A stretch of 64,000 nucleotides of DNA from an uncultured Thermoleophilia bacterium (lineage in GTDB: Bacteria > Actinomycetota > Thermoleophilia > UBA2241). The notes under the pieces are model-generated. The model ran no database searches, was not told the origin of the DNA, and saw only the letters and a list, made by a program, of their open reading frames with translations. The number at the start of each line of letters is the position of its first letter. Within the stretch, counting starts at the first letter, position 1. The stretch lies in contig CAVQSP010000011.1 in assembly GCA_963715985.1 (NCBI GenBank), positions 1 through 64,000 on the forward strand. Reading direction: 5' to 3'. The position numbers and the translations under genes are program-made. Below are positions 6,375-57,714 of this stretch, in pieces.

Positions 6375-6778
6375 TCAGTTGACGGTGACCTTCTTCGCCG
6401 CGGACGTGCTTGACGTCGAGAGGTGCGCGACCCGCACGCGCAGCTTGTACGCGCCCTTGGCGGACGGGGCCTTCCAGGTCAGCGAGTACGCGCCGTTGGA
6501 CAGGTTCGCGGACGGTCCGTTCTTCCACGCGGACGCCGTGGGGAGCTTGTACTGCAGCGTGGCCTTCACGGCGTGGGACGGGGGTCCGGCCCTCGGCGCC
6601 CGTGACCTTGATCGTCTTGCCCGCCTTGACGGACGCCGGTGCGGAGATGGACAGCTTGGTCGAGTGGCACAGCGACGGCGTGGCGCCGGAGCGCGCCGTG
6701 ACGACGACCGCGAACACCATCACGGCGGCCGTCAACACCAGGGCGACGACGGTCAGACTGGTCAACGTCTTCTTCATG
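6375..6778 (-). CDS. Secreted protein with Ig-like C-terminal domain (frameshifted)
   Basis: MKKTLTSLTVVALV signal peptide; continues in ORF 6375..6569. Confidence 0.55.
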
Positions 6779-8615: not shown

Positions 8616-8877
8616 GGCGACGATGGGGCGGCGCGGGTGACGATGCCGGAGCATCCATCCCAACGGGACTGCACATCGGCGAGACGGGCACCCTCAAAGG
8701 GTACGCGACTCCTGATATGAGCGATGCTCAAGACGGGAGGCTGTGATCCGCTGAACGCAGCACTGCGGCCACCGCAGTCCGGCGGGGAGCCACTGGTGAG
8801 ACCGGCCCGCGAGGCCGGTCTTCGTGCATGTGGGATCGGCCCATGGGGAGCCGAGGGGCCGACGGGAAGGGGAAGGC

Positions 8878-9837
8878 ATGGAGAGGTCGTGGAAACCTAG
8901 ATCAGGAGCGTGCATGGCACTCGTGCTCCTCGCGGTGATCGGCGTGGTGGCCTTGGCGGCCTGCGGCGACTCGAACACCTCGGCGTCGACATCGCCGAGT
9001 GCCACGAGCGCGGCGCCGTCGACGTCGCCCAGCATCGTCCCGGCGGCCGAGCCGGTGTCGCAGTGGGACAAGCCCGGCTCGGCCTCGCTGGCGCAGACGC
9101 AGGTGGTCTCGCGCCGCTACGCCGCGCTGCTGCACGCCGAGAAGATCCCGAGCGCCGGGCTCTACACCTCGGCCTCCACCTGGGACTACTGGCCGAGCGA
9201 TGCGCACGTCCGGGGCACCAAGGAGATCGAGGGCATCATGCGGGACGCCGGCCCCTATATCGACTGGTCGAAGCTGAGCCACCTCTTGGCCGCCCCTGGC
9301 GTGGGTGTCTACGAGGGTATGATGAAGAACTTCGATGCCTACCCGGTCGCCGCGACGCCGAGTCTCGTCCTGCTCGCCGTGGACGGCAACAAGGTCGCAC
9401 ACGAGGAGGTCTTCCTCAACGAGGGCGACGTGAGTCCGGTGGCGTATGGCACCTCGACGCCGGGGCCGAAGGACACCGCGCAGGTCGCGGCCAAGGTGTG
9501 CGCCGCTGTCGGCGAGGCCTTCGCGACCGGTGACCGAGGCGCGATGCAGGCGCTCGTCGCACCCGACATCCTGTTCCGCGACACCGCGCAGAAGCGTGGC
9601 GTGCGCGGCCGGGACGCCTTCCTCGCCTGGTGGGACAAGACCCCGACGGTCGAGGTCCAGAACAAGACGCCGATCTCGGGACCGGGCTGGGCGGTAGGGC
9701 GCTGGACCTTGCGGCAGGTCTTCTCGACGGGGGCCGAGGTGGCCATGCCGGGGGCGACGGTCATGGAGGTGCGAGACGGCGAGGTCGTCCGCATGACGCT
9801 CTACTACGATTCGAAGGTGATGCGCTTGCAGACGTGA
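8878..9837 (+). CDS. Lipoprotein with SnoaL/NTF2-like domain(s)
   Basis: Lipobox LAAC, Ser/Thr/Pro linker, C-terminal pattern GATVMEVRDGEVVRMTLYYD. Confidence 0.75.
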   Translation: MERSWKPRSGACMALVLLAVIGVVALAACGDSNTSASTSPSATSAAPSTSPSIVPAAEPVSQWDKPGSASLAQTQVVSRRYAALLHAEKIPSAGLYTSASTWDYWPSDAHVRGTKEIEGIMRDAGPYIDWSKLSHLLAAPGVGVYEGMMKNFDAYPVAATPSLVLLAVDGNKVAHEEVFLNEGDVSPVAYGTSTPGPKDTAQVAAKVCAAVGEAFATGDRGAMQALVAPDILFRDTAQKRGVRGRDAFLAWWDKTPTVEVQNKTPISGPGWAVGRWTLRQVFSTGAEVAMPGATVMEVRDGEVVRMTLYYDSKVMRLQT

Positions 9838-37968: not shown

Positions 37969-39360
37969 ATGGCATCGCGTATCCCGACGAGACTCGGCGA
38001 CGGTTCGCTGGTCGAGATGACCCGGGCGGAGATCGAGGCGGACCTCAACGCCGGCTCGGAGGTCGCCGTCAAACGGGCCAAGGTCGAGCCTCTTCCCCAG
38101 GACGACATCGACCACCTGCTCGACATCTTCACCTCCCCGGCCAAGTTCAGCGCCGTGGACTACGGCGACGAGGTGGTCCTCAGCTTCGACGGCTCCGGCA
38201 ACGCGGACATCGGCGCGCCGGTGCTCGAGCAGATCGTCTACCAGAACCACCACGGCGCCGACATGATCGAGCTCTGGCACCACGACTACTCGTACAAGGC
38301 CGTGCGCACCGTGCTCTCCTTCCAGACGCAGCTGCTCAAGGACGCGCAGCAGCAGACCGTGATCCCTCTCAACTACGGGGCGATGCCGGACCTGGGCCGC
38401 TACTCCATGCCGGACGGCCCGGCGAGGAACTGGTCGGAGCTGCTGCCGCTGGGCAAGGTCGACGAGGCCCGCGAGGCCCAGCTGGAGGCCGTGGAGCACC
38501 TCGAGAAGGACATGTGGTACGTGATCGAGGCCATGGTGGCGGCCGGCGTGGACGGCATCGACTTCGACACCGCCGGCGCCGCCGGGGACGCCGACCTGCT
38601 GGCCACGCTGCGCACGGCGCGCAAGCTGCGCGACACGTGGCCGGACATCGGCGTCGAGATCGGCCAGGCCTCCGAGCTCGTGCTCGGCATGCACGGGCAG
38701 CTCGAGTACGAGGGTACCCGGCTGGCCGGCCAGTGGCCGCTCGGCCAGCTCCGCGCCTGCACGGCCGCCGGCGCCACCATCTTCGGGCCGGCGGTGAACG
38801 TGAACACCACCAAGTCGCTGGCCTGGAACACCGCCCGCGCCTGTGCCCTGGTGAAGCCCGTCACCGCCGAGGCCAGCATCCCCGTGCACATGAACGCGGG
38901 CATGGGCGTCGGCGGCGTGCCCATGACCCCGTATCCGCCGGTGGACGCCACGTCGCGCGCCTCACGCGCGCTCGTCGACATCTGCAAGATCGACGGCTTG
39001 TAGGTCGGGGTCGGGGATCCCCTCGGGATGGCCTCGACACACGCGCTCGCCTCGGGCATGGGCGGGATGCGGACCGCCGGAGATCTGGTGGCCCGCATGC
39101 AGATGACCCGAGGCCTACGCCTTCCGCAGGCCAAGCAGTACGTGGCGGACAAGCTCGGCTGCTCCGTCGCCGACCTCGGCGACACCGTGGCGATGCACGA
39201 CATCCGCCGCGACCTCGGTCTCGGCCGCATCCAGGTGCAGGACCTCACCTACGCCGACCATCCGGGGGCCATGGAGGCCAAGTTCCACGTCGCCGAGGTG
39301 CTGGACATCCCCATCAACTCGGTGGAGCGCTTCAAGGCGCACGCCGGACTCGTGCTCATG
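37969..39360 (+). CDS. mtbB: Dimethylamine:corrinoid methyltransferase MtbB paralog 1; in-frame TAG at 39001..39003 (predicted Pyl345); reads in frame into the downstream MttB homolog
   Basis: TRLGDG, DYSYK, YGAMPDLG, FDTAGAAGDAD, E.VLGMHG, GMGVGGVPM, then DGL*VGVGDPLGM..HALASGMGG.R.AGDLVARMQ continuing MtbB homology after the amber. Confidence 0.92.
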
Positions 39361-40830
39361 AGCCCCTCACAGCTCGACCTGACGAGCCGCCAGCCGCTCC
39401 TGCCGCTGGGCTCGGACTTCCGCGTCACCTTCTACGACGCCGCCAAGCTGGAGCGTTACCGCGAGGCGGTCCTCGCGGTGCTGGAGCGCACCGGGGTGAA
39501 GTTCGGTTCACCCAAGGCGCTCGCGGTCCTCGAGGAGCACGGCGCCAACGTCGACCGCGCGTCCGGCGTCGTGCGCTTCCCGCCCGACCTCGTCGCGCGC
39601 GCTCTCGCGAGCGCCCCGCGCACCTTCTGGCTGGGCTCGCGCGACGGCACCCTCGACCTGGACCTCGCGAGCGGCGACACCTTCAACACGACGAACGGCT
39701 GCGGCACCGAGGTCGTGGACTGGCACACGGGCGAGCGACGCGCGCCGACCAAAGACGACCTCGCGGCCATCACGCGGATGATCGACTATCTGGGCTCCGT
39801 CCAGTTCTGGTGGCCCAACGTGGCCGCGGCGGACTGCGGCGACACCCACACCCTGCACGAGCTGGACGCCGCCTGGAACAACACGGCCAAGCACCTGCAG
39901 GGCATGGTGCAGGGCGAGCGCGAGGCCAGGTACGCGGTGGAGATGGCGATGGTGATCGCCGGCGGCGCGGAGCAGCTTCGCCGCCGTCCCCCGATGAGCA
40001 ACCTCATCGGCACGGTGCAGCCGCTCATCAACGACAAGGACGGCATCGAGGCGGCGCTGGTGTTCGCGGAGGCCGGCGTGCCCGTGTGTTTCGTCACGAT
40101 GCCCACGTATGGCACGACGGCGCCGGCAACGAAGGCCGGCGCCTACGTGATGGGCTTCGCCGAGCTCATCAGCGCCGCGGTGTGCGTACAGCTGGCGCAC
40201 CCCGGCGCCCCGGTGATCCTGTTCCCCCTGCCGGTGCACGCCGACCCGCGCACGGCGGCGCTCACGACGGCGCCGCTGAACCACCGCGGCCTCTTCCTGC
40301 CCGGCGAGCTGGTACACCACTTCGGCCTTCCGGCGATGACCGGGTACGCCGGCACCGACGACGACCTGCCGGGCACATGGCTGGCGGCCGCGGAGACGGC
40401 GCACACGGTGATGCTCGCCGGCATCGTGGGCTCGGAGCTGATGACCACCATCGGCCTCACCAACCGCTACCAGCTGTTCACGCCCGAGCACATGATGCTC
40501 GACGACGACCTCTACCGCCGCGCCGCCAACGCCTTCCGCGACCTCGAGCTCGACGAGGAGACGCTGGCTCTGGACGTCATCGACGCCGTCGGTCCGGGAG
40601 GTCACTTCCTCGGCCAGCCGCACACGCGCCGCCACATGAAGGAGACGGTGGAGCGCTCCATCGGCCAGGAGATCGGCCCGGACGGCACGCACCTGAGGAA
40701 CGCCGTGGAGGTCGCGCGCGAGCGCGGCCTCGACATCCTCGAGCACTACGTGCCGGAGCCGCTCGACGAAGCCAAAGCGGCGGAGCTGGCGCGCGTCATC
40801 GCCGCCGCCGACGCCGAGCTGCTCGGGTAG
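39358..40830 (+). CDS. MttB-superfamily methyltransferase without Pyl (in frame with mtbB1)
   Basis: LE.TGV, GTTAP.T.AG, HPGAP, LALDVI..VGPGGHFL..PHT; no internal TAG. Confidence 0.88.
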   Translation: MSPSQLDLTSRQPLLPLGSDFRVTFYDAAKLERYREAVLAVLERTGVKFGSPKALAVLEEHGANVDRASGVVRFPPDLVARALASAPRTFWLGSRDGTLDLDLASGDTFNTTNGCGTEVVDWHTGERRAPTKDDLAAITRMIDYLGSVQFWWPNVAAADCGDTHTLHELDAAWNNTAKHLQGMVQGEREARYAVEMAMVIAGGAEQLRRRPPMSNLIGTVQPLINDKDGIEAALVFAEAGVPVCFVTMPTYGTTAPATKAGAYVMGFAELISAAVCVQLAHPGAPVILFPLPVHADPRTAALTTAPLNHRGLFLPGELVHHFGLPAMTGYAGTDDDLPGTWLAAAETAHTVMLAGIVGSELMTTIGLTNRYQLFTPEHMMLDDDLYRRAANAFRDLELDEETLALDVIDAVGPGGHFLGQPHTRRHMKETVERSIGQEIGPDGTHLRNAVEVARERGLDILEHYVPEPLDEAKAAELARVIAAADAELLG

Positions 40831-41053: not shown

Positions 41054-41704
41054 TCAGCCGTCGTCAGGCGAAGGCTCAGCAGCCTCCTGCTGTGAGGCGC
41101 CGCACTCGTCGCGGCCCAGCACGAGGCGCCGCCAGAGCTCGAACGCGGGGGTCAAGTCGAGGTCCGGGTCGGAGAGGGCCTGGAGCGCAAGGCCGTCGGT
41201 CATCGCGACCGTGAGCACGGCCAGCGGCTCGCTCTGGGCCTGGTGCACGCTCTCGCCTGCGTCGTCCAGGGCCCATGTGTCCAGGCGCCGGTACCACTCG
41301 AAGAGTTGGCGCAGGTGGGGCTCCAGCTGCTCGTCGCGCAGCACGTGCGGGATGATGTCGTAGAACATCTTGTACGAATCCCGGTCCACCGACATCTCCT
41401 GGTGGATGCGGAGCAGCGTCTCTCGCCGTTCCTCCCCGCCGGGGACGGCGGTCAGCTGTTCGATGAGGTCCACAGCCTCCTGGTAGAGCACCGAGTCCAC
41501 CAGCGCCGTCAGCAGACCGGCCTTGCTCCCGAAGTGGTAACGGATCAGAGCCGGGTTCTCGCCGGCCTCGCGAGCGATGGTCTCGAAGGTGAGGGCGCGG
41601 AACCCGTCGCGATAGAGGACGCGCTTGGCCGCCTCGAGGATGCGCAGGGCGGTCGGCGACAGGTCCGGCGTTGGATCGTCTATCGGCAGCTCGTACTTGG
41701 CCAT
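41054..41704 (-). CDS. TetR/AcrR-family regulator, divergent from mtbB2; paralog of 22607..23362
   Basis: DLSPT..RILEAA.RVL...EAG...LIRYHFGSKAGL, DGLA.Q.L.DP. Confidence 0.92.
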   Translation of the reverse strand: MAKYELPIDDPTPDLSPTALRILEAAKRVLYRDGFRALTFETIAREAGENPALIRYHFGSKAGLLTALVDSVLYQEAVDLIEQLTAVPGGEERRETLLRIHQEMSVDRDSYKMFYDIIPHVLRDEQLEPHLRQLFEWYRRLDTWALDDAGESVHQAQSEPLAVLTVAMTDGLALQALSDPDLDLTPAFELWRRLVLGRDECGASQQEAAEPSPDDG

Positions 41705-41839: not shown

Positions 41840-43246
41840 GTGGAGCACAAGATCCGCACGAGGCTCGGCGACGGCTCGCTCGTGGAGATGACGGCGGCCG
41901 AGATCCGCGCCGACCTGGAGGCCGGCACCGAGCTCGGCGCGCGGCGCTCCAAGGCCCCCCAGCTCTCCCCCGCCGAGCTCGACCACCTGCTCGACATCTT
42001 CGCCAGCGAGGCCAAGTTCAGCGCCGTCGACATGGGCGACGAGGTGGTGCTCAGCTTCGACGGCTCCGGCAACCTCGACTGCGGCACACGCGTCGACGAG
42101 CTGTACAGCTACCAGAGCCATCGCGGCGCCGACATGCTCGAGCTGTTCGGCATCGACTACTCGTACAAGGCCGTCAAGACCATCCTGAGCTTCGAGGCGC
42201 AGTGGATGAAGACGGCCCAGCTCAACCTCATCGCGCCGCTGCAGTACGGCGCGATGCCCGACCTGGGCCGCTACTCCATGCCCGACGGGCCCATCCCCAA
42301 CTGGTCGGAGCTCATGCCGCTCGGCAGGATCGCCGAGGCCCGCGACGCGCAGGTGGCCGCCATCGAGCACGCCGTGGCCGACATGGTGTACGTGGCCGAG
42401 GGCATGTGGGAGGCCGGCGCCGACGGCCTCGACTTCGACACGGCCGGGGCCGCCGGCGACGGCGACTTCCTGGCGGCCCTCACGGCGATCGAGACCATCA
42501 AGGGCCGCTACCCGGACTGCGGCATCGAGCTCGGCATGGCCAGCGAGTACGTGCTCGGCATGCACGGCGAGCTCACCTACAAGGGCCGCCGGCTCGCCGG
42601 GATGTGGCCCGTCGAGCAGCTCAAGGTCGCGCAGGAGGCCGGCGCCACCATGTTCGGGCCGGCCGTCAACGTGAACACCACGAAGAGCGTGGCCTGGAAC
42701 GTGGCCCGCGCCTGCACCATCATCAAGCCCTGCATGGACGTCGCCGAGATCCCCGTGCACCCCAACGTGGGCATGGGCGTGGGCGGCGTGCCGATGAGCC
42801 CCTACCCCCCTGCCGATGCCGTCTCGCGCGTCTCGCGGGCCCTCGTGGACATCCTCGGCTGCGACGGCTTGTAGGTGGGCGTGGGCGACCCTCTGGGCAT
42901 GGCGTGCACGCACGCGCTGGCCTCGGGCATGGGTGGCATGCGGACCGCCGGAGATCTGGTGGGCCGCATGCAGATGACCCGGGGCATGCGCCTCAAGGAC
43001 GCCAAAGCCCACGTGGCGGGCAAGCTCGGCTGCGCCGTGGCCGACCTCGCCGACCCTATCGCCATGCACGACCTGCGCCGCGACTTCGGCCTCGGCCGCA
43101 TCACGGTGCAGGAGCTCACGTACCCCGGCCACGCGGGGGCCATGGAGGCCAAGTTCCGCATCGCCGAGGTGCTCGACGTACCGATCAACAGCGTGGACCG
43201 CTTCGCGGCCCACGCCGGCTTGACCCCGACGGGAGGACGAGAGTGA
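41840..43246 (+). CDS. mtbB: MtbB paralog 2; in-frame TAG at 42872..42874 (predicted Pyl345), 468 aa on read-through
   Basis: ORFs 41840..42874 and 42875..43246 are contiguous in frame: DGL*VGVGDPLGM. Confidence 0.93.
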
Positions 43247-44713
43247 AACGCAACCTGCAGGCAGGCGGCCTGCGCAGCCGCGGGCTCAGCGTCAACGTGT
43301 TCACGGAGGCGGAGCTCGACGACATCCACCTCGCCACCCTCGAGGTGCTGGAGCGCACCGGCATCTTCGTGGAGGCCGACGAGGCGCTGGACATCTTCAA
43401 GGACGGCGGCTGCCTCGTCGACCGCGAGCAGCGCGTGGTGCGCATCCCGCCGCACATCGTGGAGGACGCCATCCGCTCCGCGCCCAGCAAGTACGTGCTC
43501 GCCGGGCGCGACCCGAAGAACGACTTCGTCATGGAGCCGGGCCGCGTGGCCTTCACCAACTTCAGCGAGGGCATCAGCGTCATCGACACGGAGACCGGCG
43601 AGCACCGCGACTCCACGCTGGCCGACGTGGCCGACATCGCCCGCCTCAACGACTACCTGCCGCAGTTCGACACGCACGAGATCGCCGTGGGCGCCACGTG
43701 ACGTGCCGCCGGCCACCGCCGCCGTGCACAACACCGAGGCGCAGCTGCTCAACACCACCAAGCCCATCGGCATCGGCCCGCTCTCGGGCCTCGAGTGCCG
43801 GGCCATCCTGCGCATGTGCGCGGAGGTGGCGGGCGGTGACGACGAGCTCCGCGCCCGCCCCATCGTGTACGGCGGCGTATGCCCGGTGAGCCCGCTCAAG
43901 CTGCCGCGCGACGCCACCGAGGTCATCATCGAGTGCTCGCGCTGGTGGATCCCGGACAACATCCTCAGCATGGCCATGTCCGGCGGGTCCAGCCCGGTGA
44001 CGCTGGCCGGCACGCTCGTGGTGCACAACGCCGAGGTGCTCAGCGGCATCGTGCTGGCGCAGCTCACCGAGCGCGGCTGCCCGATGATGTACGGCAGCTC
44101 GACCACGGCCATGGACCTCAAGCTCGCGGCGGCCAGCGTCGGCTCGCCGGAGATCTGCCTGATCAGCGCCGCGGTGGCGCAGATGGCGCGGCGCTACTCG
44201 ATCCCGAGCTTCGTGGCCGGCTTGTAGGCGGACGGCAAGCTCGGTGACGCGCAGACCGGTCACGAGAAGACCCTCACCGGACTCACGGCAGCGTTGGCAG
44301 GGGCCAACCTGATCTACGGTGCGGGGATGATCGAGTCGGGCGTCACCTTCGACTGTGCCCAGTTCGTCATGGACAACGAGATCGCGCGCATGATCAAGAT
44401 GGTCGTGGGCGGCATCCGCGTGGACGACGAGAGCCTGGCCGTGGACGACATCCACGCCGTGGGCCCCTTCGGCGACTTCCTCTCGCTGGACTCCACGTAC
44501 AAGCATATGCGCGACCTCAGCCAGCCGGAGATCCTGGACCGGCGCACGCGTGAAGACTGGGAGGCGCGCGGCTCCACCGACCTGTACACGCAGGCGAGAG
44601 AGAAGGCGCGGGACATCCTGCGCGAGCACCACCCGGAGCCGCTGCCGGACGACGTCGCGGCGCGCATCCATGCCATCGTCGAGGAGACCGACCGCGCCGC
44701 CGGCGTGGCCTGA
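43243..44713 (+). CDS. mttB: Trimethylamine:corrinoid methyltransferase MttB; in-frame TAG at 44225..44227 (predicted Pyl); 1-bp insertion near 43697
   Basis: PVSPL, SMAMSGGSSPVTLAGTLVVHNAEVLSGIVLAQL, YGSSTT.MD, then PSFVAGL*ADGKLGDAQTGHEKT...GAN.IYGAGM. Confidence 0.93.
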
Positions 44714-50876: not shown

Positions 50877-51800
50877 ATGGACATCGACCCGGTGTTCGTG
50901 GCCGAGCGCATCGAGACGTTCATCCGCGAAAGCGTGGACGAGTTCCAGCGAGATGGAGTCGTCATCGGCATGAGCGGCGGCATCGACTCGGCCGTGGTGG
51001 GCACGCTCCTCACGCGTGCCCTCGGGCCGGACCGCGTGCTCGCGCTGCTCCTGCCCGAGCGCGACTCGAGCCCGCGCAGCAAGACCGACGCCCTCCGCGA
51101 GATCGAGCGCCTGGGCCTTGCCTGGCGCGAGATCGACCTCACGCCGATGCTCACCGCGGCAGGCATCTACGACCTCCTGCCGCTCAGGCTGCTCGGTACG
51201 CGCCGTATCAAGGAGAGCGTGGTGCGGTGGGAGCTCCGCACGCGGACCAAGGCGATGGGCGAGACACCGTTTCGCCGGGCTCTGCTGGGCACCAGAGGCC
51301 TGGGCAAGGAGCAGCGCATCGTCGATGCGGGTCACGCCTATGCGCGTGTCAAGCACCGCGCTCGCATGCTGGAGCTGTACTACGTGGCCGACCTCGAGAA
51401 CCGCCTCGTGGTCGGTACGACGAACCGTAGCGAAGCCATGACCGGGTTCGTCGTGAAGTGGGGCGACAACGTCGCCGACATCGAGCCCCTCGTCCCGCTG
51501 TACAAGACGCAGGTCAGGCAGCTCGCCGCATACCTCGGCGTGTCCGACGAGCTCATCCGCAAGCCGCCCACCCCGGACCTGTTGCCCGGCATAGACGACG
51601 AGGACGCGCTCGGCATCGACTACGAGACGCTGGACATCATCCTCGAACGTCTCGAGCTCGGGTGGGACGCCGCACGCGTGGTGCAGGAGTGCGGCGTCTC
51701 CGCCTCCCAGGTCGACCACGTCGCGGAGATGGTGCGCCGCTCGCGGCACCTGCGTGAGCTCCCGCCGCATCCGGACCTCGAGACGGGCAGGCCCGTCTGA
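50877..51800 (+). CDS. nadE: NH3-dependent NAD+ synthetase
   Basis: SGGIDS, GTTNRSE, KWGD, LYKTQV, KPPTPDL. Confidence 0.92.
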   Translation: MDIDPVFVAERIETFIRESVDEFQRDGVVIGMSGGIDSAVVGTLLTRALGPDRVLALLLPERDSSPRSKTDALREIERLGLAWREIDLTPMLTAAGIYDLLPLRLLGTRRIKESVVRWELRTRTKAMGETPFRRALLGTRGLGKEQRIVDAGHAYARVKHRARMLELYYVADLENRLVVGTTNRSEAMTGFVVKWGDNVADIEPLVPLYKTQVRQLAAYLGVSDELIRKPPTPDLLPGIDDEDALGIDYETLDIILERLELGWDAARVVQECGVSASQVDHVAEMVRRSRHLRELPPHPDLETGRPV

Positions 51801-51813
51801 GCCGCCGCGTACG

Positions 51814-51855
51814 CGACGGGGGCGGGCGCCGCTCCTGCGGCGCCCGCCCCCGTCG
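51814..51855. terminator. Strong hairpin between convergent nadE and mtbB3
   Basis: CGACGGGGGCGGGCGCCGC / GCGGCGCCCGCCCCCGTCG. Confidence 0.7.
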
Positions 51856-51878: not shown

Positions 51879-53270
51879 CTACAGCTGCGCACGCTCCTTG
51901 AAGAGCTCCACGCAGTTGATGGGGATGTCGAGCGTGCGCGCGATGTTGAACTTGGCCTCCATCATGCCGGCCTCGGACGGGTGCGCCGTCGAGGTCATGG
52001 CGATGACGCCGAGACCCTTGTCGCGGCGGATGGTCTCCATCGCCACGGGGTCGCTGAGGTCGCGCGTGGTGCAGCCGAGCTTGCCGGCCACGTACTGCTT
52101 GGCTTCCTTGAGTCGCATGCGCCTGGTCATCTGCATGCGGGCCACCAGATCTCCGGCTGCCCGCATCCCGCCCATGCCGGACGCTTGCGCGTGGGCACCC
52201 TCCATACCGAGAGGGTCGCCCGTACCCGCCTAGAACCCGTCGATCTTGAGGATCTCGACGAAGGCTTTGGATGCCCGGCTGGTGGCGTCGGCCGGCGGGT
52301 AGACGCAGTTCGGCACGCCGCCGACGCCCATGCCCACGTTGACGTGCACGGGGATCTCGGCGATCTCCATGGCCGGCTTGATGAACGTGATGGCGCGGGC
52401 GATGTTCCACGCCGTCGAGCGCCCTGAATTGATGTTGACGGCCGGCCCGTAGACGCTGGCGCCGGCCTGCTGGACCATGCGCAGCTGGTCCTTGGGCCAC
52501 ATGCCGGCCAGACGGTCACCGTCGTACGTGAGCTGTCCGTGCATGCCCAGCACGAACTCGCTGGCCATGCCGATCTCGATACCTAGCCAGGGGTACTTGT
52601 CACGGAGCGTGCGGCAGGCGGTGAGGGCGGCCAGGAAGTCGGCGTCGCCGGCCGCCCCGGTGGTGTCCATGTCCACGCCGTCAGTGCCGGCCGCCACCAT
52701 GTGGTCCGCCACGTAGCCGATGTCGTCGACGAGCATCGCCATGGCCGCCTCCTGGGCGCCACGGGCCTCGTCGATCTTGTTCAGCGGCAGGAGCTCGGAC
52801 CAGTTGGGGATCGGGCCGTCGGGCATGGAGTAACGCCCCAGGTCGGGCATCGCGCCGTACTGGATCGGGTTGGTGAGCAGGCTCTGGGCGATCTTCATGC
52901 TCTGGCCCTCGTGCGCCACGTTCACCTTGATGGCCTTGTACGAGTAGTCGATCTGCCAGAGCTCGACCATGTCCACGCCGATGAGCGTCTCGTAGGACTG
53001 CAGGTCCTGCACGCGGTTGCCGATGTGCTTGGTGCCGGTGCCGTCGTTGCTCATCACGACCTCGTCGCCGATGTCCACAGCCGTGAACCGGGCCGGCGAG
53101 GCGTAGATGTCGAGCAGGTGCTCGAGCTCGTCCTGCGTGAGCATCGGGACCTTGGCTCGCTTGGCCGCGAGCTGGGTGCCGTCCTCGAGATCGGCCCTGA
53201 TCTCGGAGCGGGTCATCTCGACCAGCGACCCGTCACCCATGCGCGTGGGGATCTTGGGCTCCACCGCCAT
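51879..53270 (-). CDS. mtbB: MtbB paralog 3; in-frame TAG at 52232..52230 (predicted Pyl347); final stop is also TAG
   Basis: [36 protein letters not shown]. Confidence 0.93.
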
Positions 53271-55145: not shown

Positions 55146-56339
55146 ATGGCGCGCAAACCCCTCTCCGGCGATCTCGGCGGCCCCCGCGGGTGGGGCGCAG
55201 GTTCGCTGGCGCTGGCCGCGCTCCTGGCCGCGGCGGCTGCCCTCGCCGTGATGCTGCTGCCCGGCCACGAGCGGCCCGCGCCCGTCACCACGCCCGTACG
55301 GACGCACGCGGCGCCGCACGTGCGCGCCTGGTCCGCCGTGGTCATGGACCCGGCCACCGGCGTCATCCTCTACGCGAAGGCGCCCGACCGGCGCCTGCCC
55401 ATGGCGTCGCTCACCAAGATCATGACCGCGAGCCTCGTGCTCGAGCGGATGCAGGACCTGGAGGCATACGTCACCGTCCCGGCCACCGCCATCGGGCAGC
55501 CGGGCGCCAAGCTGGGCCTCAGCGCCGGCGACCAGATCACGGTGCGCCAGCTGCTGTTGGGACTCATGGTGAGGAGCGCCACCGACTGCGCCATCACCCT
55601 GGCGACGGCCGTGGCCGGCGACGAGACGCACTTCGTCCAGCTCATGAACCGGCGCGCGGCCGCGCTTGGCCTCGCCAACACCCACTTCGTCAACGCCTCG
55701 GGCGTCAACGTGCGCGGCCACTACTCCAGCGCGCGCGACCTCTCCACCCTCACCCGCACGGCCGTGCGCGACCCGCGCTTCCGCCTGCTCGCGCGGCGGG
55801 TGTGGGCCACGGTCACGTGGCCGCCGGCGCACGAGGTGCGCCTGCATTCGCACAACAGGCTGAACGAGCTCTACGACTGGGTGGACGGCGTCAAGACCGG
55901 CTTCACCGAGGGCACCGGCGCCTGCCTCGTGGCGACCGGCAAGTATGGGGCGCGGCGCCTCATCGTCACCACGCTGCACCAGCCCTCGCGCGACCAGGAG
56001 GTGCGCGACGCGCTCAGGCTCTTCGCGTACGGCGCGTCGCGCTTCGCACGCAAGCGCATCGTGCGGGCCGGCGAGCGCGTCGGCGAGCTGCCTCTCGAGA
56101 TCGGCGGACGAGCCGCGGCGCTCACCGCCGGGGCCGGGCTGGCCCGCGTGGTGCGCAAGGGCGCCCCCGTGACCACGCGCCTCAGCGTCCCGGGGACGCT
56201 CCAGGCGGCGCCGGCAAGGGACGAGGTGGTCGGCTACGCCACGTTCTGGTCCGACGGCGTGCTGCTGGGATCGGTCCCGGTGCGTGCCGAGGCGGCCCAG
56301 GCGGTGTCGCTCAGCGCGACGCCGCCCGCGACGCCGTGA
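55146..56339 (+). CDS. D-alanyl-D-alanine carboxypeptidase (peptidase S11)
   Basis: ASLTKIMT (SxxK) and GVKTGFT; SAT in place of SxN. Confidence 0.88.
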   Translation: MARKPLSGDLGGPRGWGAGSLALAALLAAAAALAVMLLPGHERPAPVTTPVRTHAAPHVRAWSAVVMDPATGVILYAKAPDRRLPMASLTKIMTASLVLERMQDLEAYVTVPATAIGQPGAKLGLSAGDQITVRQLLLGLMVRSATDCAITLATAVAGDETHFVQLMNRRAAALGLANTHFVNASGVNVRGHYSSARDLSTLTRTAVRDPRFRLLARRVWATVTWPPAHEVRLHSHNRLNELYDWVDGVKTGFTEGTGACLVATGKYGARRLIVTTLHQPSRDQEVRDALRLFAYGASRFARKRIVRAGERVGELPLEIGGRAAALTAGAGLARVVRKGAPVTTRLSVPGTLQAAPARDEVVGYATFWSDGVLLGSVPVRAEAAQAVSLSATPPATP

Positions 56340-57714
56340 CCTCGCGAAAGCGCTGGACGGAGTTGATCGGGATGTCGAGCAGCTCCGCTATGTGCACCTT
56401 TGCCTCCAGCCCGAGCGGCTCGCCCACGTAGGTGACCTCGCCGGCCTCGGTCATGGACCCGAGTCCGCGCTCCTTGCGCACCTCGAGCATGACGACCGGA
56501 TCGCTGAGGTCGTCCTCGGACACTCCGAGCCGCCCGGCTACATAGGCCTTGGCCTCGGTGAGTCGCATCCCCCGGGTCATCTGCATCCGCGCCACCAGGT
56601 CTCCGGCGGTGCGGACGCCTCCCATGCCCGAGGCGACGACGTGGCTCACGGCCTGGCCGTAGACGTCGCCGGCGCCTACCTACAAGCCGTCCAGCCGCAG
56701 CAGGTCCACGGCGGCGCGCGAGGCCCGCGACGTCGCGTCTCCCGGCGGCAGGATGTGCATGGGCACGCCCCCCACCCCCATGCCGCCGTTGAGGTGGACG
56801 GGGATGGTGGCCTGCTCGCAGCACGGCTTGCAGATCGCGATCGTGCGCGCCACGTTCCAGGCCACCGACTTGCCGGTGTTCACGTTGATCGCCGGCCCGT
56901 AGATGGTGGCGCCGGCCTTGGCCGCCAGCTTCATCTGCTCGAGGGGCCAGAGACCGGCCAGCCGCACGCCCTCGTACTCGAGCTCGCCGTGCATGCCGAG
57001 CACGAACTCGCTGGCCATGCCGATCTGGATGCCCAGATCGGGGTGCCGTGCGCGGATGCGCTCGATAGCCACGAGGGCCGCCAGGAAGTCGGCGTCGCCG
57101 GCGGCCCCCGACGTGTCCAGGTCGATGAAGTCGGCGCCCGCCTCGGCGAGGCCGTCCGCCACGTACACGATGTCGGCGGCGGCCTGCTCCACGGCCGCTT
57201 CCTGCGCCTCCCGCGCCTCGGCGTACCTGCCGAGCGGCAGCAACTGGGCCCAGTTGGGCAACGGCCCATCCGGCACCGTGTACAGACCCAGGTCCGGCAT
57301 GGCGCCGTACCCGCACGGCGTGGTGAGCAGGTACTGCGCCTGCCGCATGATCGTCTGCTCGTAGGGAACGACGGCCTTGGCAGGCTTGAACGAGTAGTCC
57401 TGATGGTAGAGCTCGACCGAGTCGGCGCAGAGGAACTGCTCGTAGTACTGCAGGTCGTGCACGCGCGTGCCGATGTCGTGGGCTCCGCTGCCGTCGTAGG
57501 TGAGGACGACCTCGTCGCCGATGTCCACGGCGCTGAAACGAGCCGCCGACGCGAAGATGTCCACCAGGTGCAGGATCTCATCGTCGGTGAGCGGCGGCAC
57601 TTTGGCGCGCTTCACCGCCGCCTCCACCCCGGCCCGCACCTCCTGCTCGATCTCCGCCCGGGTCATGCGCACCAGCGACCCGTCGCCCATGCGCGTCGGG
57701 ATGGATCGGTCCAC
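56311..57714 (-). CDS. mtbB: MtbB paralog 4; in-frame TAG at 56682..56680 (predicted Pyl345)
   Basis: [36 protein letters not shown]. Confidence 0.92.

Follow-up and report, generated by a model that had tools for sequence, protein, structure and literature searches.

The stretch of DNA analyzed here (the window, 64,000 nucleotides) belongs to a wetland Thermoleophilia metagenome-assembled genome (MAG) with 70% GC and carries four copies of mtbB, predicted to encode dimethylamine:corrinoid methyltransferase, together with a Pyl-type mttB (Table 1). One of these copies, mtbB3, contains two TAG codons. With TAG translated as O (pyrrolysine, Pyl), the gene comprises 464 codons, of which two are TAG, namely codon 347 and the final one. 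The product matches the Pfam family Dimeth_Pyl over residues 8 to 459 (E = 4.5e-165), a full-length match covering profile positions 4 to 462 of 463 (550 bits), and the gene has a codon score of +213 and a GC3 of 0.94. In alignments, the internal TAG falls on the TAG of each of the other three mtbB copies of the window and on a TAG in 78 of 79 related loci, with only L070, which is frame-shifted, differing; the loci nearest to mtbB3 come from Thermoleophilia or Actinomycetota MAGs. These observations confirm the initial annotation in its claim that mtbB3 carries TAG both inside the gene and as its end and, together with the stop counts given below, that this genome uses UAG to encode Pyl and, commonly, as a stop, even in one and the same gene.

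Table 1. Features of the window around the Pyl-type methyltransferase genes (TAG=O, translation with TAG read as O).
Feature	Coordinates	Strand	Description
mtbB1 plus MttB-superfamily gene	37969..40830	plus	One TAG=O frame; Dimeth_Pyl 6-457, MTTB 487-949; Pyl TAG of mtbB1 at 39001-39003; frame ends in TAG
TetR-family regulator, BetI-type C-terminal domain	41054..41704	minus	Pfam TetR_N, TetR_C_6; divergent from mtbB2-mttB-permease genes
mtbB2	41840..43246	plus	Pyl TAG 42872-42874 (TTG TAG GTG); stop TGA; PYLIS_2 65.3 bits
Pyl-type mttB	43243..44713	plus	TAG 44225-44227 (TTG TAG GCG); stop TGA; PYLIS_3 73.8 bits
nadE (NAD synthase gene)	50877..51800	plus	Convergent with mtbB3
G+C-rich 19-bp hairpin	51814-51855	minus	24 nt 3' of terminal TAG of mtbB3, between convergent mtbB3 and nadE
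mtbB3, predicted dimethylamine:corrinoid methyltransferase gene	51879..53270	minus	463 residues plus stop; TAG=O translation, Pfam PF09505
mtbB3 terminal TAG	51879-51881	minus	Genuine stop; context CAG CTG TAG CAT
mtbB3 internal TAG	52230-52232	minus	Pyl codon 347; context GGG TTC TAG GCG
PYLIS_2 match in mtbB3	52133..52232	minus	RF02509, "pyrrolysine insertion sequence mtbB"; starts at Pyl TAG; 63.7 bits (gathering threshold 36)
Conserved structured stretch	52120..52183	minus	+49 to +112 nt after Pyl TAG; no other part of the gene has a strong consensus fold
Core 7-bp hairpin	52142-52159	minus	+73 to +90; over codons for A-A-G-D-L-V
mtbB4	56311..57714	minus	Pyl TAG 56680-56682 (TTG TAG GTA); stop TGA; PYLIS_2 53 bits

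The terminal TAG of mtbB3 could in principle be a second Pyl codon, with the protein running on downstream, as the frame past it stays open for 465 more codons. However, this extension would run antisense to nadE, has a codon score of -80 and shows GC contents of 0.87/0.51/0.67 by codon position, which is an antisense pattern. Furthermore, the 47 orthologues of mtbB3 are terminated at this codon or very close to it, with TAG in 16, TAA in 6 and TGA in 25, so that 31 of them stop at this place with a codon other than TAG. The strong hairpin that had been reported after the stop also stands against an extension, and folding against shuffled sequences bears out its 19-bp stem: the 91-nt stretch that contains it reaches -62.4 kcal/mol (z = -5.0), a value equaled by none of 200 shuffles. 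The hairpin is followed by no T tract and a scan for canonical terminators made no call there; it is probably a factor-independent 3' end or a stability element. Taken together, the reading of the terminal TAG as a second Pyl codon is close to refuted.

In-frame TAGs at the conserved Pyl position are found in all four mtbB copies of the window and in all 11 mtbB loci of the genome. Family searches across the genome returned 11 mtbB, 10 mttB and 2 mtmB matches with one in-frame TAG each (23 in total). This inventory replaced a search for new Pyl genes by the coding potential of the 40 codons that follow each TAG, which missed known mtbB genes and flagged operon neighbors. Of 26 called open reading frames (ORFs) of the window that were compared with Pfam, 25 matched a family. 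The mtbB1 frame continues, as previously described, through an MttB-superfamily gene to a TAG at 40830 as one open TAG=O frame, and the fused MttB-superfamily part has no TAG of its own; in four relatives the two genes are separate, the first one stopping ahead of the second ATG or in overlap with it. The TetR/BetI-type regulator encoded divergently from the mtbB2 genes is a candidate for a substrate-responsive switch of the methylamine genes.

The genome also encodes the machinery to read UAG in both ways. It carries pylT, pylSn, pylSc, pylC and pylD, along with a pylB that has a frame break. A single genomic copy of tRNA-Pyl(cta), with anticodon CUA, was located by ARAGORN at C13:555126-555198. 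The synthetase is split, the catalytic subunit PylSc (TIGR02367, 316 bits, cut-off 178) and PylSn (TIGR03912, 124.9 bits, cut-off 51) being encoded separately, and PylC (317.9 bits, cut-off 248.3) and PylD (199.5 bits, cut-off 150) also score above their cut-offs. The pyl locus includes an MtbC-like corrinoid protein whose match to TIGR02370 (173 bits) falls under the cut-off of 215. These genes lie on a different contig from the window, do not form a single uninterrupted operon and include a pylD that itself stops at TAG. Release factor RF1 (480 bits, cut-off 423), tmRNA and a tRNA-Sec are encoded as well.

Several broken genes might suggest that this Pyl system is decaying, so that UAG would act only as a stop and the TAG-containing genes would be relics. 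The pylB gene (C13, about 552.6 kb) scores 305.4 bits where 348.2 is the cut-off, since its last ~95 residues are separated off by a +1 frame break; 3 of the 11 mtbB and 2 of the 10 mttB genes are in pieces, and the window's mttB is interrupted near 43697-43701 by a break in the frame. Nevertheless, when the window was compared with four wetland DNA runs, other metagenome contigs had one base fewer at 43697 (two runs) and at about 46920 (four runs), precisely at the points where frames of the window are broken, so that these breaks look like assembly indels. In addition, eight of the mtbB copies are unbroken and show a strong codon bias, and PylS is retained in 22 of the 25 other genomes of the family. 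We consider decay of the system very unlikely.

TAG is also a regular stop codon in this genome. The 12 genes of the window that had been listed as ending in TAG all coincide with the ends of ORFs called from codon usage. Genome-wide, TAG closes 694 of 3,833 called genes (18.1%), and 582 of 3,391 (17.2%) once the Pyl genes are removed, the share being put at 17.2 to 17.6% for the comparison with relatives; TAG is thus not a rare stop here. Its share was 18.3 to 37.6% in five Pyl-positive relatives and 21.8 to 47.9% in five Pyl-free relatives, based on samples of 200 to 400 kb per genome and our own codon-usage gene caller. TAG stops are therefore not depleted relative to Pyl-free relatives, and the two ranges overlap. 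There is likewise no sign that TAG stops are arranged to contain read-through. The next in-frame stop lies at a median of 60 codons after TAG versus 56 after TGA, and another stop comes within 10 codons for 10.4% of TAG and 12.4% of TGA stops, with no enrichment of back-up stops after TAG. The TAG share within 10 kb of Pyl genes (14.8%) does not differ significantly from that elsewhere (17.3%, p = 0.40), and across codon-bias classes it ranges from 15.9% to 20.0%, without avoidance.

Sense and stop TAGs differ in the codon that precedes them. When the residue before a Pyl TAG is leucine, it is encoded by the rare TTG or TTA (TTR) in 58 of 59 cases from three unrelated enzyme families (29 of 30 in mtbB, 24 of 24 in mttB and 5 of 5 in mtmB), although these sequences are related by descent, and what is independent are three families of genes plus a small number of deep paralogue lines rather than 59 sequences. 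Among the other leucine codons, TTR accounts for only 4.2% in mtbB (99 of 2,371) and 6.4% in mttB (62 of 971). Since the choice is synonymous, protein constraint cannot account for it. Some sense sites depart from the pattern: mttB also uses GCG, GCC and ACC at this position, and other copies of the genome use ATG and CAG. In the archaeal counterparts of the three methyltransferase families, Val or Ser is found there. Where a gene with a genuine TAG stop ends in leucine, TTR was found in 0 of 47 cases; the stop of mtbB3 itself reads CTG TAG C, and all 10 of its orthologues that end in Leu-TAG use CTN. The shortage of TTR-TAG among real stops does not reach significance (0 of 47 versus 7 of 144 at TGA). 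In the samples of relatives, apparent genuine TTR-TAG stops numbered about 1 of 28 in Pyl-positive and 3 of 28 in Pyl-free genomes, which is too few to test. Most TTG-TAG cases in the Pyl-positive samples resemble internal Pyl sites of the mtbB type, and one was seen in a second Pyl-positive family (G010, G100). Among the papers returned by full-text literature searches, none was found to describe a 5' codon rule at natural Pyl sites.

On the 3' side, a purine at position +4 follows the TAG in all 81 distinct mtbB sequences and in all 23 Pyl sites of this genome, and after 53% of genuine TAG stops. This G or A is, however, forced by the next residue, which is Val, Ala, Gly, Thr or Ile.

The sense TAGs are further set apart by the sequence downstream. 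In the window, all five sense TAGs carry a match to the Rfam family PYLIS_2 (RF02509) or PYLIS_3 (RF02510), whereas none of the 13 stop TAGs does, and all four mtbB copies and mttB exceed the gathering thresholds, with 53 to 65.3 bits for the three mtbB copies other than mtbB3. These scores partly express protein conservation, as the matches overlie a strongly conserved peptide. The two helices of the PYLIS_2 model behave differently in this clade. Helix 1 (model positions 7 to 38) is not conserved, with 56.7% of cells paired and eight non-standard pairs in the mtbB3 copy. Conversely, helix 2 (model positions 73 to 92) is paired in 92.2% of cells across 81 distinct sequences and two of its pairs show changes on both sides; it coincides with a hairpin found independently in the consensus fold of mtbB, 72 to 91 nt 3' of the Pyl TAG.

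The stretch from +49 to +112 folds to -17.3 by alifold (mean -1.6, sd 3.5), and 97.3% of the cells of the hairpin stretch are paired versus 89.5% in shuffles, a level reached by 0 of 500. Two pairs of synonymous third-codon positions covary, as CG (39) and GC (33) and as CG (40), GC (29) and UG (9), with all four combinations of the two present on the tree, while the mtbB3 copy of the hairpin contains one A.G mismatch. The stem pairs also rank 1st and 7th of 42,485 variable column pairs by excess complementarity. By itself this ranking is no evidence, because clade-defining substitutions yield many high-scoring pairs, and the case for covariation is based on the tree pattern and the shuffle controls. 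With its core 73 nt from the UAG, the hairpin is too far away to touch a ribosome decoding that codon.

Considering these results, we find it slightly more probable than its alternatives combined that UAG is ambiguous in this organism, being sorted by local context at the Pyl sites and probably by a regulated supply of Pyl-tRNA. RF1 would compete at every UAG with Pyl-tRNA(CUA), presumably charged by the split PylSn/PylSc with pyrrolysine from PylBCD. Given that TAG stops have not been purged from the genome, most of the sorting would have to come from context and supply. At the approximately 23 methyltransferase sites, the context may favor the tRNA through a U-initial preceding codon (the rare leucine codons UUG and UUA, or UAC and UUC), and further through the +4 purine and the PYLIS_2/3-type structure downstream. 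Ordinary stops that do not have these features, such as the CUG UAG C of mtbB3, would mostly terminate. The Pyl-tRNA supply would be limited and is probably switched on together with the methylamine genes, and residual read-through at real stops might yield short-lived extended or non-stop products, dealt with by the next in-frame stop, the 3' hairpin or tmRNA. An effect of context on decoding efficiency, a regulated supply and such handling of leakage are what we infer from the parts list, the stop statistics and the context differences described above.

A simpler alternative is that every UAG has the same read-through probability, set by the ratio of Pyl-tRNA to RF1, with extensions tolerated and the context features due to protein constraints, mRNA stability or codon history. 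According to the available portions of the sources, such a model has been proposed for Methanosarcina acetivorans, in which a Pyl gene gives long and short forms (PMC12626013), and a cis element is not needed for Pyl insertion in Escherichia coli (PMC8211752) or Methanosarcina (PMC12626013). The distance of the hairpin from the UAG, the unconserved helix 1 and the protein constraint on +4 are also in line with it. However, TAG makes up 17 to 38% of stops and is not backed up by further stops. Reading all of these through alike would lengthen hundreds of proteins, with a median extension of 60 codons, and archaea that live with uniform ambiguity are described as having brought their TAG share down to a median of 5% (PMC12626013). 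Moreover, the rare TTG or TTA before the Pyl codon has been kept in three unrelated families in which 94 to 96% of the other leucine codons are CTN. We consider uniform read-through the less likely reading, though still a serious rival.

The reading in which context and supply both contribute bears on the proposal, made in the initial annotation, that this organism needs conditional or context-dependent decoding, a proposal that is partly supported. The part concerning context gains support at the sequence level, from PYLIS_2/3 matches at sense TAGs only, a covarying hairpin, TTG or TTA at the preceding codon and a purine at +4. The word "needs" is too strong, because M. acetivorans, as presented in the available text of PMC12626013, tolerates an ambiguous UAG with no known cis signal.

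Dual use of UAG is already known from Methanosarcina and Acetohalobium. A close parallel is Acetohalobium arabaticum, for which the available text of later papers reports a Pyl supply tuned to the substrate (Prat 2012, as cited in PMC8211752 and PMC11467909). As described there, it is like our host a bacterium with split PylSn/PylSc, Pyl-type methyltransferases and TAG still in use as a stop, so that in both, what UAG means would have to vary with conditions. Unlike it, our host is an actinobacterium of 70% GC, has about 23 Pyl genes and does not keep its pyl genes in a single uninterrupted operon. In M. acetivorans, the portions of PMC12626013 and PMC13663744 available to us likewise describe a tuned Pyl supply and a UAG that is both stop and Pyl codon, with Pyl-tRNA set against the release factor; in both organisms a TAG is found in a gene for Pyl biosynthesis (in pylB there, as the stop of pylD here). 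The release factor differs, being bacterial RF1 in our host and aRF1 in Methanosarcina. Stop usage differs as well: in archaea, TAG is reported at a median of 5% (range, 1 to 27%) in Pyl-positive versus 22% in Pyl-free genomes (PMC12626013, available text), in contrast to the 17 to 38% of the Pyl-positive genomes here, which overlap the Pyl-free ones. Consequently, this genome is not of the TAG-depleted Methanosarcina type.

PYLIS elements have been cataloged as RF01982 (PYLIS) for mtmB1, RF02509 (PYLIS_2) for mtbB and RF02510 (PYLIS_3) for mttB (Have et al. 2013, PMC3639795), and in the available text of that source function was assayed only for the mtmB1 element. Compared with the Rfam model of PYLIS_2, the clade studied here has an unconserved helix 1 and a helix 2 with compensatory synonymous changes, for which no earlier report was found in the accessible portions of the literature searched. 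Selenocysteine insertion (SECIS and SelB) resembles the Pyl sites described here in that an in-gene stop is recoded with an mRNA structure downstream. Nonetheless, it relies on an elongation factor of its own and on a structure that is indispensable, whereas Pyl-tRNA is described in the available parts of PMC12626013 and PMC13663744 as using the normal factor and no element. Pyl genes are also known from Actinobacteriota MAGs: in a thawing permafrost mire, organisms of the same kind were reported to express the same Pyl-encoding mttB and mtbB genes (Ellenbogen et al. 2023, PMC10805028), and in the available text of that study we found no treatment of stop-codon usage or UAG context.

What is new here are the sequence signs of context around sense as opposed to stop UAGs. 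How cells keep Pyl-tRNA from rewriting all amber stops is called unsettled in the consulted sections of PMC8211752, PMC12626013 and PMC13663744, and high-GC Thermoleophilia offer a useful natural experiment on how UAGs are sorted. Because codon bias is very strong in this group, retained TTG or TTA codons and complementary third positions signal selection on mRNA rather than on protein. For annotators of wetland MAGs, the results indicate that methyltransferase genes split by a TAG are real, and that, in this bacterial class, Pyl use cannot be recognized from TAG depletion. More tentatively, and with the balance still somewhat against it, the ribosome of high-GC bacteria may separate Pyl UAGs from stop UAGs partly by cis context, through a preceding-codon rule (U-initial codons, with leucine confined to the otherwise nearly unused UUG and UUA) and the covarying hairpin, the rule having arisen convergently in three unrelated methyltransferase families. 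The differences between sense and stop UAGs are open to bench tests. If this wider reading is true, Pyl decoding would not be a purely context-free competition, and the preceding codon would be an easy and transferable means of adjusting how strongly tRNAPyl suppresses amber codons.

Read with TAG as a residue (pyrrolysine, Pyl), the dimethylamine methyltransferase gene mtbB3 is one frame of 464 codon steps in which two are TAG, codon 347 and the last one, and it covers profile positions 4-462 of 463 in the Pfam family Dimeth_Pyl (E 4.5e-165). The internal TAG lies in the motif D-G-(L/F/Y)-O-(V/A)-G and is aligned with a TAG in the other three mtbB copies of the window; among 79 related loci taken from public genomes, 78 have an aligned TAG, and the remaining one (L070) is frame-shifted. 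The terminal TAG is a true stop. Past it, 465 codons remain open, but they are the antisense of nadE and have a codon score of -80, versus +213 for mtbB3. Among the 47 orthologues with a readable end (identity at least 70%; left out were the frame-shifted L020, L046 and L070, and L039, which meets a contig end), the gene stops at the codon of mtbB3 or very close to it, with TAG in 16, TAA in 6 and TGA in 25; of 28 paralogues, one has a TAG end. Since so many orthologues end in TAG, the dual use of UAG inside one gene is common in this group and not a one-off. Behind the mtbB3 stop stands a G+C stem of 19 bp, and the 91-nt stretch that contains it folds at -62.4 kcal/mol (z = -5.0; equalled by 0 of 200 shuffles); a consensus scan called no terminator at this hairpin because the T tract is missing. 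Translation, Pfam and folding thus all agree with the initial annotation, which had described an internal TAG, a TAG end and a hairpin beyond it. The 12 TAG gene ends it listed are likewise all ends of ORFs chosen by a codon-usage gene caller built for this 70% GC genome, and 25 of the 26 called ORFs submitted matched a Pfam family. Elsewhere in the window, a c-di-GMP-II-GAG riboswitch (RF03169) was matched upstream of an ORF with 58.9 bits (gathering score 40).

Positions of the genes, RNA elements and frame breaks discussed (L006, pyl locus; C13, the contig with the pyl genes; G000, the present genome)
Feature	Position	Remarks
mtbB3	window 51879..53270 (-)	
Stem behind mtbB3 stop	window 51814-51855	
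Other mtbB copies	window 37969.., 41840.., 56311..57714	
mtbB1-MttB joint frame	window 37969-40830 (+)	954 residues; junction near 39350-39360
Gly at -2, mtbB and mttB	window 52233-52238, 44219-44224	
Riboswitch RF03169	window 8727-8816 (+)	
ORF downstream of riboswitch	window 8914-9837	
Frame breaks	window ~43697, ~45190, ~46920, ~50838, ~37548	first three sites: mttB; amino-acid permease; before MTTB fragment 
One base fewer in other runs	window 43697, 46918/46921, 50838/50840, 37548/37550	contigs of 2-4 other wetland metagenome runs
pyl locus	C13:552-560 kb	other contig than the window; pylB-pylC-pylD-pylT-pylSn, radical-SAM gene, MtbC-like corrinoid protein, pylSc
pylB frame break	L006 ~6670-6680	+1
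pylD stop	L006 9054-9056	TAG; G000:C13:555053-555198 spans stop through pylT
pylT	L006 9127-9199	tRNA, anticodon CUA; 70 nt past pylD
pylSc	C13, pyl locus	strand opposite to the rest

The initial annotation proposed a genome-wide count of stop codons, and in that count TAG is common, at 17.2-18.1% of genes: it ends 694 of 3833 called genes (18.1%), 609 of 3456 under a stricter calling threshold, and 582 of 3391 (17.2%) once Pyl genes are excluded, with TGA at 79% and TAA at 3.5%. The same gene caller was applied to 200-400 kb sampled from each of ten related genomes. TAG made up 37.6% (G008), 33.5% (G140), 30.1% (G100), 28.6% (G032) and 18.3% (G056) of stops in genomes with the Pyl system, and 47.9% (G016), 29.1% (G007), 27.1% (G015), 25.4% (G014) and 21.8% (G002) in those without it, G014 and G002 being small, near-complete and congeneric with the present genome. 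The two ranges overlap, with the present genome at the low end. In archaea, the available text of PMC12626013 gives a median TAG share of 5% (range 1-27%) with Pyl and 22% without; given the overlap, there is no sign here of such a purge. Across the class, the share runs from 17% to 48% and is unusually high in some genomes (G016, G008, G140), with no tie to Pyl. Furthermore, TAG stops show no enrichment of back-up stops: the next in-frame stop lies a median of 60 codons past TAG and 56 past TGA, and a stop occurs within 10 codons in 10.4% and 12.4% of cases, respectively. TAG is avoided neither near Pyl genes (14.8% vs 17.3% elsewhere, p = 0.40) nor in strongly codon-biased genes, and it ends 4 of the 23 Pyl genes themselves.

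The machinery for decoding is encoded in the same genome. PylSc, PylSn, PylC and PylD pass their NCBIfam cut-offs; PylB reaches 305 bits against a cut-off of 348, because a frame break splits off its last third. In frame beyond the pylD stop, a second TAG follows 17 codons on, and then a TAA within the tRNA gene. RF1 scores above its cut-off (480 bits), and tmRNA, tRNA-Pyl and tRNA-Sec are present in single copies. RF2 (prfB) was not found in the assembly, although TGA ends most genes; as it was found in 17 of 20 relatives, its absence probably reflects incompleteness, the gene lying in the missing ~11%. Family searches with stops read through recovered one in-frame TAG apiece in 11 mtbB, 10 mttB and 2 mtmB loci, alongside TAG-free homologues (~45 further genes of the MttB superfamily and 5 MtmB-like ones). 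Matches to the MttB superfamily are very numerous, 72 including some fragments, and only ~10 of them have a Pyl TAG; this number, together with the five TAG-free MtmB homologues, suggests an organism specialised on methylated amines. Within the family, PylSc occurs in 22 of 25 genomes besides this one; a second family has it in 2 of 25, and no searched genome from the remaining families of the class yielded it.

The assembly (4.35 Mb, 22 contigs, 70% GC) has a rated completeness of 88.8% and a contamination of 7.3%, and the window opens a 698-kb contig; the closest relatives of mtbB3 (identity up to 88%) all belong to MAGs that carry the label Thermoleophilia, Actinomycetes or Actinomycetota. 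Several frames in the window are broken, and elsewhere in the genome 3 of 11 mtbB and 2 of 10 mttB are pieces rather than whole genes. The truncated pylB could suggest that the Pyl system of this genome is decaying, yet this reading is weakened by contigs from other wetland runs, 95-99% alike to the window, which have one base less at sites matching the window breaks. Since they are shorter by one base at four sites, the window breaks look like single-base insertions, either of the assembly or of the strain. In addition, mtbB1 lacks a stop codon, and its reading frame carries on into a gene of the MttB superfamily that contains no TAG. Four related loci have two distinct genes there, the mtbB stop lying just before or overlapping the second ATG; the joint frame is either a real fusion or a further single-base assembly error.

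Sense and stop TAGs differ in the preceding (-1) codon. In mtbB, this codon is TAC in 45 sequences, TTG in 29, TTC in 2 and CTC in 1, so TTG supplies 29 of 30 Leu; in 38 other Leu-rich columns of the alignment, TTG/TTA amounts to 99 of 2371 (4.2%). Only one other Leu column exceeds 9%; it lies at the extreme gene start, where the TTG probably serves as start codon. The 31 Pyl-type mttB of the family have TTG 22, TTA 2, GCG 5, GCC 1 and ACC 1, against 62 TTG/TTA among 971 Leu codons elsewhere in these genes (6.4%), and a TAG-free paralogue carries CTG at the equivalent position; the five Pyl-type mtmB have TTG 4 and TTA 1. Genome-wide, TTG is 2.6% and TTA 0.0% of Leu codons. Genuine TAG stops with a final Leu have TTG/TTA in 0 of 47 cases (CTG 25, CTC 20), and TGA stops in 7 of 144. 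The mtbB3 stop itself reads CTG TAG C, and a CTN codon precedes all 10 Leu-TAG ends among its orthologues. In Leu-stop orthologues, TTG stands ahead of TAA in 2 of 5 (L007, L033) and ahead of TAG in 0 of 10; the numbers are tiny, and the pattern would be expected were TTG-TAG prone to read-through. The three families share no sequence similarity, and as Methanosarcina barkeri has G-V-O in MtmB and G-S-O in MttB, both the Leu and the rare codon used for it are acquisitions of this bacterial lineage in each of the three. A Gly (GGN) at -2 is found in mtbB, mttB and mtmB here and in relatives, and in M. barkeri MtmB and MttB, either as a structural need or as a nascent-peptide effect. The base after TAG (+4) is a purine at 81 of 81 mtbB and 23 of 23 Pyl sites of the genome because the next residue forces it, and at 53% of stop TAGs.

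Rfam models separate the two kinds of TAG as well. Over the whole window, PYLIS matches begin exactly at the five sense TAGs and nowhere else (0 of 13 stop TAGs): PYLIS_2 (RF02509) at the four mtbB copies (53-65 bits, gathering score 36) and PYLIS_3 (RF02510) at mttB (73.8 bits, gathering score 38), although the conserved peptide must account for part of the score. Independently of the Rfam family, RNAalifold slid over a codon alignment of 77 mtbB (73 loci and the four window copies) gave a sole outlier along the gene, +49..+112 past the TAG (-17.3 vs mean -1.6, sd 3.5), and the 7 bp at its core (+73..+90) are helix 2 of PYLIS_2. Over 81 distinct sequences, pairing holds in 97.3% of cells versus 89.5% after shuffling, and covariation scores 0.191 versus 0.069 (0 of 500 equal in both), for a structure derived from the same, related sequences; slid controls reach 29-44%. 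Two of the pairs connect third codon positions and exchange CG for GC (39/33; 40/29 plus 9 UG), with all four combinations seen across clades plus a few mismatch intermediates, one of them (A.G) the mtbB3 of the window. In a gene-wide ranking of complementary column pairs, clade splits inflate the scores. Rfam helix 1, adjoining the UAG, is not conserved here (56.7% paired).

According to the available text of PMC8211752, PMC12626013 and PMC13663744, Pyl-tRNA uses the ordinary elongation factor in competition with release factor, no cis element is obligatory for Pyl insertion, and Pyl supply is tuned by substrate in both systems studied. RF1 and Pyl-tRNA would thus contest every UAG. As hundreds of unprotected TAG stops are kept, we infer little read-through at ordinary stops; Pyl-tRNA is likely scarce except during methylamine use, and context at the methyltransferase sites likely tips the balance toward Pyl. 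The -1 rule hints at an effect of the tRNA in the P site or of the base at -3. Speculatively, it may stem from a bulky modification at base 37, adjoining the A site, on tRNAs for U-initial codons. With its core at +73, the mtbB hairpin is too distant to touch a ribosome on the UAG; a role in decoding would be indirect, for example through ribosome spacing, or it may instead affect mRNA stability. Ribosomes reading through the mtbB3 stop would meet the stem behind it, presumably at or near the mRNA end, and the leaked products could conceivably pass to the tmRNA system.

The observation that UAG is both sense and stop, even within mtbB3, is correct; for the most part the phenomenon was known already, and the host group is one recognised recently. 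Dual UAG meaning, conditional control and the PYLIS models are already published, and the available text of PMC10805028 reports that Actinobacteriota MAGs express Pyl-type mttB and mtbB. Three points were not found in the literature searched, which included the available text of PMC3639795, PMC12626013 and PMC13663744: non-depletion of TAG in a Pyl-using bacterial clade relative to congeners without Pyl, compensatory synonymous changes in the mtbB hairpin, and a rule for the codon at -1 of naturally occurring Pyl sites. Judged from sequence, sense and stop UAGs in this organism are marked differently, by Rfam matches, hairpin and -1 codon. Consequently, context-dependent decoding becomes testable at the bench.
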